From the IMG/VR virus record IMGVR_UViG_3300031413_000570: 64,000 nt of DNA; one strand, given 5' to 3'. Under the pieces are notes generated by a model that searched no databases, had not been told where the DNA came from, and worked only from the letters and a program-made list of their open reading frames with translations. The stretch is from a virus. Its lineage: Duplodnaviria; Heunggongvirae; Uroviricota; Caudoviricetes. Below, piece after piece: positions 38,154 to 64,000 of the stretch. The translations under genes and the position numbers were made by a program. Every line of letters begins with the position of its first letter. The stretch's first letter is position 1.

Positions 38154-39896
38154 TTATGAATCCTGTAATGCTGGGTTCAAAGCTCCTGGGTTCAACTGGA
38201 TAGTTGAAGTCTTACCTTCTGTTGTTGTGAACTTGACCATACCGCCTTGTTCGCTGACTGTTTTGATGTTCTCGTAAGTTGCTTCGTCAATATTACCGAA
38301 GTTACCTGAGAGGTCCCAATCGTAAATACGGAAATCGTCTTCACCTTGACAGTTAGCTACACCGTACTCACCTTGGTAGGTAGTTGGCAGCTTACCAGCC
38401 TGGAGTTCATCCAAGCAGGAGTTTGAAGTTGTTCCTGCAGCTGGTTTTGCTGCACGATAGAAGTTGGTCATTCGGTAGCTGCTTGTGACTTCAATTCCAA
38501 CAGTTGGAGCATTGGAGTTGTATGAACTCTGGGTGTAGGAATCTGTTCTGTCTTCACGAGGAATTTCGTAGTAGAACTCGCTTGGGGTGTTTGACGCCTG
38601 GGAGAAGAACGGTGTACTTGAACCGTTGAGGTACAATTCAACTGTGGTTCCGTTAGCTGAAGTCCAGAACTGTTCCATGCTTCCTGGGCTGTAGTAGTAA
38701 GCCTGTCCTGTTGGGTCACAAGCAACTTTCTTGTAAGTTCCCTCTTCTGACCAGCAACCGTCAGTACGAGCGGTAAGTGTTGGCTGTCCCATTGTTTGGA
38801 ACATTGACTCGTAAGATGTGAACATTGCAGACATGCTGGTGTTACAGTTTTGGTCAACATAGAAAGCGGTTGCAAGGGTTTCATTGGTTGTCTGAGCATC
38901 AGTGTATAAGTTGTTGTACTTGTTGCACTGACCGCCAGGCTGGTCACCGCCTGGAGGGGTGAAAGACCCTGCTACGTTGATGGTGATTGAGTCAGGACAA
39001 CCAGCTGGTAGGAAAATTACTTGCCCTCTTTCAGCGAAAGTTTGAGCTTCTTCCAGGGTAGCTCCAATGTATCCGTTAGTGGTTTGGATGCCTACTGCTG
39101 TCTGGATTCCGTCTGATGATTGAATGTATTCCCAGCTACCAGCAATCTCAATTTCTTCACTGTCTAAGTAAGCTTTTACTTGTGTTACCTGTGTGGCTGG
39201 GTCTGTAGGTGCGCAAGTTGGGTCTGGTTCAACACCATAGTTGATTTCACCATTGCGAATGTGAATAACTGCTGAGAGACCCTGTTGTTCAAAATAGGTT
39301 CCATCAAGGGAGGAGTTGTATCCAATACCACCGTTGTCATCACCGAACATGTCTTCAAGGTTCAGACACTCTGACTGGTCACCTTCTTGGTACATGCGAG
39401 GTGCGCTGATTTTGTTGTCAATCCAGAAACGGTTGCCTGTCTCTGAGGTAATGACAGCAACATAGCAGTCTTTGTTGTTTGTTCCTGTGGAAACTATAAG
39501 ACGTTCAGATTCTTGAAGCAAACCTCCATGTTCGGCTTTCAAATCGTCATAGTTACCAAAAGTCTGTTTCTTCTCTCCATCATCGCCAACGCTGAAACCA
39601 GCATATGCTGACTCTGCTGTATGTACTGAGGAGAGAGATGCTTTTGCTGCTTTGTCCTGTGCCCAAGGAATGATAGCGAATACTGTTGCAGAGATTACTC
39701 CACCGATGAGGCCGATGACGATGACACCAACCATGATGGAAGCTAAGTCAATGGCGGCTTGTGAAGAGCTAAAAGCTGCTCTTATTTTTGTGTAGTTTTG
39801 AATAGGCGGGTGCGTGCTGCCAGCAGACATACAGATTCTTCTCTCTAAGGGGGTTAGGTAGCTGAAAAAAGTATCGGTTATTAACAAGCTTTTCAC
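38154..39896 (-). CDS. large exported protein with type IV pilin-like N-terminal domain (paralog 1 of 4)
   Basis: After a leader, SSSQAAIDLASIMVGVIVIGLIGGVISATVFAIIPWAQDKAAKASLSSVHTAESAY closely matches the N-termini of the ORFs at 60000, 61407 and 62891. A large variable C-terminal domain follows. The true start is probably the internal MSAGSTH. Confidence 0.55.
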   Translation of the reverse strand: MKSLLITDTFFSYLTPLERRICMSAGSTHPPIQNYTKIRAAFSSSQAAIDLASIMVGVIVIGLIGGVISATVFAIIPWAQDKAAKASLSSVHTAESAYAGFSVGDDGEKKQTFGNYDDLKAEHGGLLQESERLIVSTGTNNKDCYVAVITSETGNRFWIDNKISAPRMYQEGDQSECLNLEDMFGDDNGGIGYNSSLDGTYFEQQGLSAVIHIRNGEINYGVEPDPTCAPTDPATQVTQVKAYLDSEEIEIAGSWEYIQSSDGIQTAVGIQTTNGYIGATLEEAQTFAERGQVIFLPAGCPDSITINVAGSFTPPGGDQPGGQCNKYNNLYTDAQTTNETLATAFYVDQNCNTSMSAMFTSYESMFQTMGQPTLTARTDGCWSEEGTYKKVACDPTGQAYYYSPGSMEQFWTSANGTTVELYLNGSSTPFFSQASNTPSEFYYEIPREDRTDSYTQSSYNSNAPTVGIEVTSSYRMTNFYRAAKPAAGTTSNSCLDELQAGKLPTTYQGEYGVANCQGEDDFRIYDWDLSGNFGNIDEATYENIKTVSEQGGMVKFTTTEGKTSTIQLNPGALNPALQDS

Positions 39897-39974
39897 AGGT
39901 TCTCATAACACCTAATTGAAAAACAATGGCGGTCCAGGACAATTAGCATCCTGGACCGCCATAATGATGGTTTG

Positions 39975-40787
39975 TTATTTGGCTTGTGCAATCATTTTCA
40001 ACACTGCCGGCACTTCTTTCCACTTCTTCACACGATACTTTGAAGGGACAGCTGCGTTGTACGCATTCTCAAACGCGATAACCGTTTTACCGTTCTTCTG
40101 TAGAGTGTTAATCTGCTTGTCAGAGTCATCAATGTACACATCGATACCTGGGACTTTCTCTTTGTCCTCAGTGTGAGTGATAGAGGTGAAAGGAATGCGG
40201 TGACGACGCAACCACTGACGGGTCTCTTCATTCCATCTATTACCACGAGCTGTCACAACGCGAACTTCAACGTCACGGCTACTGACCAAAGTACGGAGAG
40301 TTTTGCTCACCCCATCAAAAGCTTTCATTTTGGAGTAGACACCATTCTCTTCCGCTGAATGGAAAGCATCCAAGAAGGAATTCACGTCAGTGAACCATCC
40401 TGAATCTACGAAAGAGTAATGAGTTGGAGGGCTGGGAAGAAGCGTCTCAGCCTGCTCAGGAGTAAGGCCCTGTGTCTTCATGACATGGTTACGAATAGAT
40501 TCCGTAAAGTCACCACTTGTGTTGTCCACATCCAACGCGAGAACCAAAGGTGTTTTGCGAAGGTTGGTTTCACGCTCAGCTTGAGCGATGAGGTTTGCCC
40601 TACGGGTTTCATATTTCGCAGCTAACGCGTCTTTGCCTTGAGCTTTGAGGTCAGCGATACCAGCTAATGAAGTGAAGTAGTTCCTTCTTGCAAGCTTGAT
40701 GCGTTCAAGATCACCAGACTTTTCTGCAGCTTCAAGTTTGATGCGAGCATGGTAGCTGCAACGAGGGTATGGTTTGCGTTTGCACAT
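39975..40787 (-). CDS. HAD-superfamily 5'(3')-nucleotidase-like protein with N-terminal C-x7-C-x2-H motif
   Basis: DxD HAD motif LALDVDNTSGDF after an N-terminal extension of about 80 aa that begins MCKRKPYPRCSYHA. Confidence 0.55.
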   Translation of the reverse strand: MCKRKPYPRCSYHARIKLEAAEKSGDLERIKLARRNYFTSLAGIADLKAQGKDALAAKYETRRANLIAQAERETNLRKTPLVLALDVDNTSGDFTESIRNHVMKTQGLTPEQAETLLPSPPTHYSFVDSGWFTDVNSFLDAFHSAEENGVYSKMKAFDGVSKTLRTLVSSRDVEVRVVTARGNRWNEETRQWLRRHRIPFTSITHTEDKEKVPGIDVYIDDSDKQINTLQKNGKTVIAFENAYNAAVPSKYRVKKWKEVPAVLKMIAQAK

Positions 40788-62795: not shown

Positions 62796-62890
62796 AGTTA
62801 AATACTTTCTTTAGGGGATAATGTTGATAAGAGATTGATTGCGACGATTCTAAGTTGACCGTTGGAATCTCTATCAGAATTTTGAGAATT

Positions 62891-64000
62891 TTAGAGCGTT
62901 CCGGTCTTAATGATCTTCACGTCGTCAATCATGAGATAAGAAGTAGTCTCCCCTGCATCAGTTCCAGTCCAGTTGAGATAGTAAGTTCCTTCTTCTGTTA
63001 CAGTGAAATCTACTCCATGGGTCTCCCAAACATAAGCTGAAGTCCCTCCGTTAGATTGGAACCCTGGAGTCCATGTTGTCGATGCTACTGTTGCACCAGT
63101 AGTTTTTTTAGCACTCAAAGTCCAGGTGTTCCAAGAACCGTTTGCACCTTTTGCCGTATAACCAGAAGCTGAATATGTACCTGGAGTAAGAGTTACTGTA
63201 GGTCCGGTTATATAACCATTATTTGCTGCGTTTCGCATTTCGAGGGCTTTTGTGGCGTTTATTCTACTGAAGTTTGCGTACAATCCAGAGTATTGAGCCC
63301 GGTTAGCAGATATTGCGTTAGAGTCTGTTGTCTTAACTTTCAAGTTCGCACCAGTGCCATTAGTACCGCTGGAATTATAGTAATTCCAGCCAGCTGGAAG
63401 AGCGTTGAAAGCTTCTCCTTCAAAATCAGTAGAATAAACTACTGTTCCGACTGGTACTCCGTAATCTGAACCAGGTGTTGGGGTAGGAGTAGTTGGGGCA
63501 GTTCCAGGAGTTGTTCCCACTGGAGTTGTGCCGTTATCGACGGTAGGGTCAACAATAACTACTCCGTTAGCATCAGTGATACAAGGGTAGGTACCAGTGA
63601 AGACCTGTGCTTGTTTGTTACTGTTCAAAGCATAGAATGTTTTACCTGAAGATGATTTAGCATAAGCGTGGTAGTCCTTACCATCAACAGTATTCACTAC
63701 ACAGTAGTTAACATTTGAGGTCAGCAAGTTATTTGAAGCTAATTCAGCTGAGTTCGTGAAACTGTTCTTCTTCCCACCTACAAGGTTCTGGCTTGGGTCA
63801 GAGGATAAACCAAAGAACGCGTTCTCTGCAGTATGGACAGAATCCAGCTGTTGTTTCGCTGCTTTGTCTTGAGACCAAGGAATGACAGCGAAAACAGTTG
63901 CGGCGATGACGCCACCGATCAAACCAATGATGATGACACCAACCATGATGGAGGCTAAATCGATAGCAGCTTTGGAGGACTGCAAAACCTTACTGAGGGC
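62891..64000 (-). CDS. pilin-like N-terminal domain protein (paralog 4), 5' end runs off the window
   Basis: The ORF continues to the window edge (ALSKVLQSSKAAIDLAS...). The head domain and the ...DDVKIIKTGTL C-terminus are shared with 60000. Confidence 0.5.
   Translation of the reverse strand, partial: ALSKVLQSSKAAIDLASIMVGVIIIGLIGGVIAATVFAVIPWSQDKAAKQQLDSVHTAENAFFGLSSDPSQNLVGGKKNSFTNSAELASNNLLTSNVNYCVVNTVDGKDYHAYAKSSSGKTFYALNSNKQAQVFTGTYPCITDANGVVIVDPTVDNGTTPVGTTPGTAPTTPTPTPGSDYGVPVGTVVYSTDFEGEAFNALPAGWNYYNSSGTNGTGANLKVKTTDSNAISANRAQYSGLYANFSRINATKALEMRNAANNGYITGPTVTLTPGTYSASGYTAKGANGSWNTWTLSAKKTTGATVASTTWTPGFQSNGGTSAYVWETHGVDFTVTEEGTYYLNWTGTDAGETTSYLMIDDVKIIKTGTL

Follow-up and report, generated by a model that had tools for sequence, protein, structure and literature searches.

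Four ORFs share an N-terminal module

The DNA analysed here, called the window throughout, is a stretch of 64,000 nucleotides from the IMG/VR virus record IMGVR_UViG_3300031413_000570, and it carries four minus-strand open reading frames (ORFs) that share an N-terminal module of ~150 amino acids (aa; 46-81% identity) and have unrelated C-terminal domains. An earlier note on this DNA had described such an arrangement, and a tblastn search of the window with residues 1-160 of the ORF at 60000 confirmed it by returning exactly four places: the query itself (100% identity, E 1e-106) and matches at 63997-63539 (81%, E 1e-68), 62795-62286 (68%, E 3e-59) and 39785-39333 (46%, E 6e-29). There is no fifth copy in the window, the next match having an E value above ~2. 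Two Cys occur in each module, as had been noted (122/155, 102/143, 108/148 and 95/135 in the order of the ORFs below), but their spacing is 33-41 residues and not the ~50 given before.

The protein p38154 (38154..39830, minus strand; 558 aa) has a module 46-50% identical to the other three, from which it is separated by ~20 kb of genes unrelated to the pilin module (39.9-60 kb). Its leader MSAGSTHPPIQNYTKIRAAFSSSQA is followed by AIDLAS, before which the putative cut lies, the module extends to about residue 160 (Cys122/Cys155), and the remaining ~390 aa form a Cys-rich orphan region. p60000 (60000..61277, minus strand; 425 aa) consists of the leader MLTLSKALQSSKA before AIDLAS, the module, a Thr/Pro/Ala linker, a He_PIG Ig-like domain (residues 186-267) and, at the C-terminus, a beta-rich and putatively CBM-like domain that ends in WDDVKLTKIG. 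In p61407 (61407..62795, minus strand; 462 aa), the leader MLTLNKVLQSSKA before AIDLAS and the module are followed by a Gly/Thr/Pro linker and DUF285/PARCEL (BspA-like) repeats. p62891 (62891..64000, minus strand) is truncated by the window end; the complete protein, known from another record (L019), has 371 aa and begins MRALSKVLQSSKAAIDL, with the leader MRALSKVLQSSKA before AIDLAS, the module, a Thr/Pro linker and a predicted carbohydrate-binding-module (CBM)-like jelly roll with the terminal sequence IDDVKIIKTGTL. The ORFs are therefore those delimited earlier, except that the first starts at the ATG at 39830 and not at 39896, in agreement with its 558-563-aa database copies, and that the last is incomplete in the window.

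The C-terminal modules are predicted from their sequences to be adhesin-like, that is, sugar- or surface-binding. The DUF285 repeats that had been recognised in p61407 are unambiguous (E 7e-55; PARCEL repeat E 2.5e-30), and the He_PIG domain of p60000 and a choice-of-anchor-J-like domain in p62891 were matched at E 4e-10 and 2e-5, respectively. A word-index search with the C-terminus of p62891 gave no matches. p38154 contains ten Cys overall, and a phmmer search with its C-terminal 388 aa against 1.84 billion representatives recovered its own 90% cluster and two marginal repeats. The beta-rich, DDVK-ending domain said to be common to p60000 and p62891 is weak by direct comparison (BLASTP E 0.04), but it fits a web of weak similarity that also takes in P0001, P0002 and P0005, the long pilins of L001, and L025, all of which end in a (V/I)DD(V/I)(K/T)(L/I)-type strand; one long pilin of L001 matches CBM_4_9 at 9e-10. 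L001 belongs to a 637-kb relative and holds a tandem of pilin paralogues, seven of them short and six or more long (L001:8879-19934). The CBM_4_9-like C-termini of its long pilins are mutually 34-37% identical and the first ~65 mature residues are near-invariant, so that the tandem looks like a diversifying adhesin array.

Evidence for a type IV pilin module

Sequence, family, gene context and predicted fold support the conclusion that the N-terminal module of all four ORFs is a true type IV pilin module. The leader is hydrophilic, ends in ...SSKA or ...SSQA and stands directly before a long hydrophobic stretch, AIDLASIMVGVIVIGLIGGVIAATVFAVIPW, as is characteristic of class III signals. The module has 233 database relatives, mostly of 150-210 aa and many of them labelled 'pseudopilin PulG' by JGI, which align with it across both the helix and the head (...KSASGK.FY.TD.KTQP...). 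All four proteins weakly match positions 5-52 of the GspG profile, the N-terminus of which is also weakly matched by 106 of 119 aligned family members. Among those of the 233 relatives whose genomic context was inspected, the cultured Leifsonia sp. Leaf264 (L016) has a short family member directly after pilB, a second ATPase gene, pilC and an A24 peptidase gene, and two T2SSE genes, T2SSF and A24-peptidase genes adjoin relatives also in L001, L022, L025, L028 and L114; the peptidase of these clusters gives a full-length though weak match to Peptidase_A24 and contains a GxGD motif. An AlphaFold2 model of the module, built on the 119-sequence alignment, consists of a 59-residue helix and a four-stranded sheet (pLDDT 79), and this predicted fold is the alpha1-plus-beta-sheet lollipop of type IV pilins. 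The pilin reading proposed in the earlier note is supported by these four independent lines of evidence, which also speak against the possibility, raised there, of a plain transmembrane anchor unrelated to pilins.

The mature N-terminus of the family is AIDLASIMVG, and ~30 hydrophobic residues lie ahead of a conserved Pro-Trp, as opposed to 21 in classical pilins (PMC4471445, PMC8179133). It had been noticed correctly that no canonical G↓FxxxE site is present (the arrow marks the putative cut); the family motif is [G/A]↓AIDLASIMVG with Asp at +3. The lack of G↓F...E does not, however, point to an atypical processing peculiar to the window proteins, since [G/A]↓AIDLAS is used throughout the Microbacteriaceae-type family. 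What emerges is a previously undescribed pilin family of Microbacteriaceae type that the standard signature PF07963 overlooks.

Two leader classes

We gathered 54 distinct family members from all loci in hand, and they fall into two leader classes. The G class (33 members, Gly at -1) has a leader of ~25 residues ending ...(K/R)NE-x-G and a median mature length of 168 aa. The leader of the A class (21 members, Ala at -1) is shorter; its members are all large, with a median mature length of 449 aa (range 266-1042), and residue -2 is Arg in 16 and Lys in 3, i.e. basic in 19 of the 21. All four window proteins are of the A class, three with SSKA before the cut and one with SSQA. At least eight A-class genes are dispersed over the chromosome of Leifsonia Leaf264, where they are fused to DUF285 repeats, to He_PIG plus an RCC1 propeller, to BNR/sortilin propellers or to a CBM_4_9-like domain; one of the encoded proteins (L009; 609 aa, RA↓AIDLAS, DUF285 E 5e-119) has the same architecture as p61407. 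On a related 188-kb contig, three pilin genes occupy the syntenic site (L003:8288-12716), two of them DUF285 fusions of p61407-like architecture with Gly at -1 and a long leader, and the third a 291-aa gene with Ala at -1, which indicates that both leader classes are present at this locus in relatives. A first list, with Gly in 110 of 119 members and Ala only in phage-like copies, had led us to consider Ala -1 as a phage-specific, dominant-negative change. This idea was rejected because Ala -1 is the rule for the large modular members in Leifsonia and at other loci.

The helix itself is under strong constraint. Across the 31 residues of alpha1N, the four proteins are identical to the replicon's own major pilins at 28-30 positions and to the Leifsonia major pilin at 25-27. 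Over the 52 codons of alpha1, comparisons among paralogues and relatives gave pS values of 0.4-0.9 (near saturation) and pN values of 0.02-0.2, so the identity of alpha1 is kept by purifying selection and does not reflect recent duplication or transfer. Such constraint is as expected if the helix packs in the same fibre and docks on the same platform as the major pilins.

Pilus machinery on the same replicon

Exact matches to the window's DnaK, NucS, RNR-beta, S26 peptidase, NMNAT-like protein and three of its four pilins are recorded on a contig of 788,683 bp, and strain variants of window proteins on contigs of 776,559 and 782,330 bp. Records of contigs with this length also include members of the 90% clusters of PilT, of PilC (with a sequence identical to that of the 776-kb strain, L114), of an A24-like peptidase, of a 'PilV'-named 844-aa minor pilin and of the major pilin P0024, together with another minor pilin, the major pilin P0350, a rIIA-like protein and the fourth pilin in full length. 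In the 776-kb strain, the pilus cluster comprises YdjM, a PilT-like protein (438 aa), a PilB-like protein (715 aa), PilC (408 aa), a divergent pilin-like gene (326 aa), the peptidase (267 aa), five G-class pilins (179-200 aa) and four proteins with minor-pilin-type N-termini (350, 191, 844 and 218 aa); the PilB-like ATPase was observed in this strain only. The replicon's PilC is 59% identical to that of Leifsonia. An 880-kb relative has two A-class genes between pilC and the peptidase gene, with a leader near the window's (MLK[IL]HQ..KSSRA↓A) and p61407 as their best match (54% identity, E 7e-40).

The search for pilus machinery and a prepilin peptidase that the earlier note had called for thus finds both on the replicon, and a host pilus machine need not be assumed, given PilT, PilC, an A24-like peptidase and major and minor pilins on the same element. 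Because of this gene set, the four ORFs are probably dispersed accessory subunits of the replicon's own pilus and not parasites of a host machine. A gene for VKOR, which is disulfide-bond-forming, lies at or near the pilus cluster in several relatives (L023:1354-1938; L027/L028:1-301, partial; L022 ~1640-1940, by tblastn only), and the Cys pair conserved in the modular-pilin heads is consistent with this.

The nature of the replicon

The earlier note spoke of a phage, an assignment that gene content makes probable and does not prove. Short pilins of the family are found mostly on contigs of 0.6-0.9 Mb with 45-46% GC. We considered these contigs as the host chromosome and rejected this, as they are syntenic with the window over at least 18-21 kb and the 788,683-bp contig carries window proteins. 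Contigs of 637,770 and 880,409 bp have a block collinear with 31.5-50 kb of the window, with genes for YqaJ-RNase T, a 307-aa ORF, MazG, S26 peptidase, Wzy_C (55-63% identity), NT5C, WGR-PARP, ART and Band_7. A rIIB-like protein encoded just outside the window is closest to those of the Microbacterium phages Pumpernickel, Zooman, Big4 and Cece (41-44% identity, E to 1e-50), followed by Arthrobacter, Streptomyces and Rhodococcus phages, and a rIIA-like ATPase and a metallophosphoesterase are common to the replicon and Pumpernickel. Genes of phage type within the window encode a T4 gp1-like dNMP kinase, two Rnl1-type ligases, a polynucleotide kinase-phosphatase (PNKP), three ART-like proteins, a PARP and a YqaJ/DnaQ-like exonuclease, and the majority of the replicon's genes have no Pfam family. 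In the ~150 kb sampled (the 64-kb window and ~90 kb more), there are no ribosomal, aminoacyl-tRNA-synthetase or RNA polymerase genes. The only tRNA in that sample is an amber suppressor with a CUA anticodon (L020:6984-7057, in the 637,770-bp relative). This suppressor, together with TAG at 0 of 35 stops, had raised the possibility of TAG recoding, which was rejected, as TAG ends 4 of 75 long window ORFs and no read-through fusions were seen.

The low-GC replicons are absent from 185,579 GTDB species representatives, in which a motif scan gave only high-GC Microbacteriaceae, and the clade is absent from NCBI-sourced proteins. Judging by the sequence affinities of the pilin family, PilC, Wzy_C and rIIB, the host or parent lineage is most probably an aquatic low-GC group of Actinomycetota near the Microbacteriaceae. 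Among 50,697 phage records, neither megablast nor tblastn found relatives of the pilins, nor did scans of IMG/VR, and homologues of PilC or PilB appeared in those records only in mislabelled bacterial assemblies or unannotated faecal fragments. PHROGs holds no family for three of the four window pilins and no structural family for any; the sole PHROG matches are to families of unknown function that hit the DUF285 repeats.

A working model and its alternatives

The best explanation, which we hold with moderate confidence, is that the four ORFs encode modular type IV pilins for pili made by the replicon itself, and that this replicon is probably a megaphage. In such a model, the proteins would insert in the membrane through alpha1N and would be cut before AIDLAS by the replicon-encoded A24-like prepilin peptidase, and the pilB-like/pilT/pilC machine would add them in low numbers to pili composed of G-class major pilins. 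They may sit at the tip or decorate the shaft, in either case exposing Ig, CBM-like and DUF285 modules on Thr/Pro-rich stalks, and the finished pilus would offer several different heads for binding to glycans or surfaces. With a megaphage, it is infected cells that would make the pili; one possible benefit is that these cells adhere to other cells or to (polysaccharide) particles, and another is replacement of the pilus surface and thereby exclusion of pilus-dependent competitors. In its fullest form, for which the chances appear about even, an actinobacterial megaphage clade of 0.64-0.88 Mb would encode a complete retractile type IV pilus and refit the infected cell with it, the window ORFs being part of its adhesin-pilin cohort. 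The pilus set would then amount to a PilB-like ATPase (from strain relatives), PilT, PilC, the peptidase, four core minor pilins and five to seven major pilins.

Several observations weigh against this model. No N-methylation motif (PF07963 / IPR012902) was detected in the window pilins with Pfam E values up to 1, and a profile of the module gave only chance matches to PDB sequences. The Foldseek comparison with the PDB that the earlier note had proposed did rank a pilin, from Thermus, first, but without significance (E 0.47). Mature position 5 is Ala, with an Asp at position 3, so that Glu5, the subunit-registration residue of classical pilins, is missing; it is also missing in archaeal pilins and some minor pilins, and its loss therefore does not exclude membership of the superfamily. 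The CBM fold at the C-terminus of p62891 comes from a low-confidence model (pLDDT 56). Co-residence of the window pilins and the pilus genes is deduced from contig-length records and not from the 788,683-bp sequence itself. The sampled stretches contain no genes for capsid, portal, terminase or tail, and when metagenome contigs were scanned with a terminase profile of Microbacterium, Gordonia and Arthrobacter phages, the 80 loci recovered included none tied to the clade. The pilus clusters of relatives are flanked by cellular-looking genes for VKOR, YdjM, a Bax inhibitor and a fatty-acid desaturase, and the clade's sizes of 0.64-0.88 Mb extend beyond the 735 kb of the largest published phage genome (PMC13282480). 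Cleavage, assembly and surface location are inferred, and the main uncertainty lies in cleavage after Ala -1. A Gly in this position is reported to be critical for the prepilin peptidases of bacteria (PMC4471445), so the A-class proteins may be cut poorly or never and stay membrane-anchored. Elsewhere the leader is described as ending in 'Gly or Ala' (PMC8179133), and archaeal systems accept a small non-Gly residue at -1 (PMC4471445). The consistent use of Ala with a basic residue at -2, across cells and the replicon, suggests that the A class is handled in a functionally distinct way; as an example, and as pure speculation, slower cleavage might keep A-class subunits rare.

The substitution of Ala for a supposedly required Gly, preceded by a basic residue in 19 of 21 A-class members, also suits a different arrangement, in which the A-class N-terminus would serve only for recognition by the platform and the proteins, cut or uncut, would be held at the surface unpolymerised. 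In Sulfolobus, sugar-binding proteins are localised to the surface in this manner by a type IV-like system that forms no visible filament (PMC4471445, PMC4858521), and the bulky modules, in proteins of up to 1042 aa in Leifsonia, would be in keeping with it. An anchor would have no use for the entire pilin head, though, and it is the head and not the signal peptide alone that is conserved with the major pilins; moreover, characterised modular pilins with comparably large modules do enter pili (PMC8179133). We therefore consider a display of this type rather unlikely. The possibility that phage pilins enter a host (or phage-made) pilus as receptor mimics or agents of superinfection exclusion, with C-terminal modules that act as shields and not as adhesins, seems slightly stronger while still improbable. 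It has precedents in prophage FimU homologues, which enter the pilus tip and block tip-binding phages, and in PilA-like genes of virulent phages (PMC12952977); alpha1N is near-identical to that of cellular Microbacteriaceae pilins, which makes co-assembly into a host pilus conceivable, and the C-termini diverge very fast, as in an arms race. Mimicry alone would not call for a machine of its own and at least five major pilin paralogues on the replicon, however, and the occurrence of the same modular fusions in cellular genomes indicates that the modules are not phage-specific shields. We also know of no pilus-dependent competitor phage for this host group.

The points concerning size, flanking genes and the lack of structural phage genes in the sampled stretches can be accommodated if the replicon is a very small actinobacterial cell or chromosome-like element, the ORFs are cellular modular pilins, and the phage-like genes were acquired or derive from a prophage. 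Near-identical sizes recur across samples as those of complete genomes would (880,409/880,603/880,975/881,636/883,042 in one set and 776,377/776,559/782,330/788,683 in a second), and DnaK, ClpB, NucS, signal peptidase I, NAD synthase and RNR are present. A cell should nonetheless have ribosomal protein, aminoacyl-tRNA synthetase, RNA polymerase and ordinary tRNA genes, none of which occur in the ~150 kb sampled. The rIIA/rIIB, gp1-type kinase, Rnl1, PNKP, ART-like and PARP genes are phage hallmarks, most genes lack a Pfam family, dnaK lies outside the actinobacterial grpE-dnaJ operon, and a lineage with single-contig assemblies is missing from the GTDB representatives and from NCBI-sourced proteins. 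We thus regard the replicon as a likely megaphage, with a very small cell or cellular replicon an outside chance and something else, such as a giant plasmid-like element, a slimmer one. Least of all do we expect the four proteins to be tail fibres or receptor-binding proteins of the virion with an N-terminal helix that merely resembles a pilin's, a very improbable reading: the module is homologous along its full length to pilins from pilus clusters, the neighbouring genes are of early type (rIIA/rIIB, SNF2, RNR, phosphoesterase, ABC ATPase) and not a structural module, no structural PHROG was matched, and a hydrophobic N-terminus of 31 residues is ill-suited to a soluble fibre.

Relation to known pilus systems

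The design of a pilin module, a linker and a binding module is that of the modular pilins described in Streptococcus sanguinis PilB and PilC (PMC8179133), and the window proteins qualify as modular pilins sensu Raynaud et al. (2021). As in S. sanguinis PilB (with a vWA domain) and PilC (with a lectin), or in CofB and TcpB, the grafted modules are ligand-binding and unrelated to pilus biology, and several such subunits occur beside short major pilins and core minor pilins; the domains most often grafted include PF05345 (He_PIG) and carbohydrate-binding ones, and the modular pilins of Raynaud et al. are probably tip-exposed (PMC8179133). The window family differs in its motif [G/A]↓AIDLASIMVG, with Asp3 and not Glu5, in the lack of an IPR012902/PF07963 signal, in its own [K/R]-Ala-type leader, and in having its genes dispersed on a probable phage genome and not in a cellular pil locus. 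The Sulfolobus bindosome is similar in that its large binding proteins have a signal peptide of pilin type, rely on type IV-like machinery for assembly and tolerate residues other than Gly at -1 (PMC4471445), but its proteins have no conserved pilin head, whereas the window proteins keep the full (predicted) pilin fold.

The claim in the earlier note that a phage-encoded pilin-like cohort is undescribed has been overtaken by the publication of P-FimU and P-PilA, pilins found in prophages and virulent phages (Sztanko et al., Cell Rep 2026, PMC12952977). These are phage-borne and have an N-terminus close to that of the host clade, and P-FimU has been shown to be built into the pilus. They are single, non-modular, host-machine-dependent receptor replacements, whereas the window's replicon has at least four modular adhesin-type pilins, arrays of major pilins and pilus machinery, and the possession of its own machinery makes a plain replacement of a host-pilus component less likely.

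Whole type IV pilus clusters occur on mobile elements, among them the R64 thin pilus with its PilV shufflon adhesins, PAPI-1 and the bundle-forming pilus; such elements are conjugative, the pilus serves mating or colonisation, and adhesin variants arise by DNA inversion within one gene. They resemble the present case in having a mobile pilus cluster and alternative C-terminal adhesins on a constant pilin N-terminus, but do so with a single inverting gene, in place of which the replicon has separate paralogous genes. To our knowledge, no lytic-type or isolated phage carries a complete pilus-building machine.

Modular pilins, single phage-borne pilins and plasmid- or ICE-borne type IV pili are thus already known. 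New are the Microbacteriaceae-type family, with two leader classes that part short structural pilins from large adhesin-bearing ones, and the presence on a phage-like replicon of a cohort of four or more adhesin-bearing modular pilins together with pilus machinery. Should the replicon be a phage, no phage before it would have been shown to supply a type IV pilus of its own, phage genomes would reach a larger maximum size, and the hitherto vague idea that phages remodel the surface of infected cells could be tested on defined subunits for which glycan ligands are predicted. Should it be a cell, what is left is a useful account of an actinobacterial pilin family that had gone unrecognised and that PF07963 misses.

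Neighbouring genes

A block next to p38154 (39975-43073) encodes an NT5C 5'-nucleotidase, a Wzy_C (O-antigen-ligase-like) membrane protein (41035..42339, minus strand; Wzy_C E 3e-17) and an S26 type I signal peptidase (42459-43073), and is kept in the 637-kb and 880-kb relatives. The Wzy_C protein, which has no match among the 50,697 phage records, may be an O-glycosyltransferase of PglL/PilO type that acts on the Thr/Pro-rich linkers of the pilins, but relatives do not consistently have its gene next to a pilin gene. A shared upstream motif, CCGATAA, is not convincingly enriched (6 matches against 2.5 expected), and a promoter and terminator scan stayed at background level.

A full-length DnaK (19586-21445; 827 bits to 6w6e, the best-scoring DnaK of the PDB) is encoded without a recognisable grpE or dnaJ as neighbour, and a ClpB-like AAA+ chaperone of 831 aa lies ~10 kb past the window's left end (L117:17121-19616). 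On the minus strand at 43074-45791, a 905-aa ORF joins the T4 gp1-like dNMP kinase to a C5 cytosine DNA methylase with an inserted Hint/intein. The two Rnl1-type RNA ligases and PNKP (8889-10130, 12565-13497 and 23550-24671) make up a T4-style tRNA repair kit. In one strain variant (L119:1-3780), a type I restriction-modification system (HsdR, HsdM) stands where others carry RNase H, exonuclease, NucS and PNKP. Finally, two NAD synthases, a 507-aa NMNAT-like cytidylyltransferase, a 2OG-Fe oxygenase, three ART-like genes and WGR-PARP (873-8121, 11542-12513 and 34389-37889) form an NAD/ADP-ribose gene set that may counter NAD-depleting defences.

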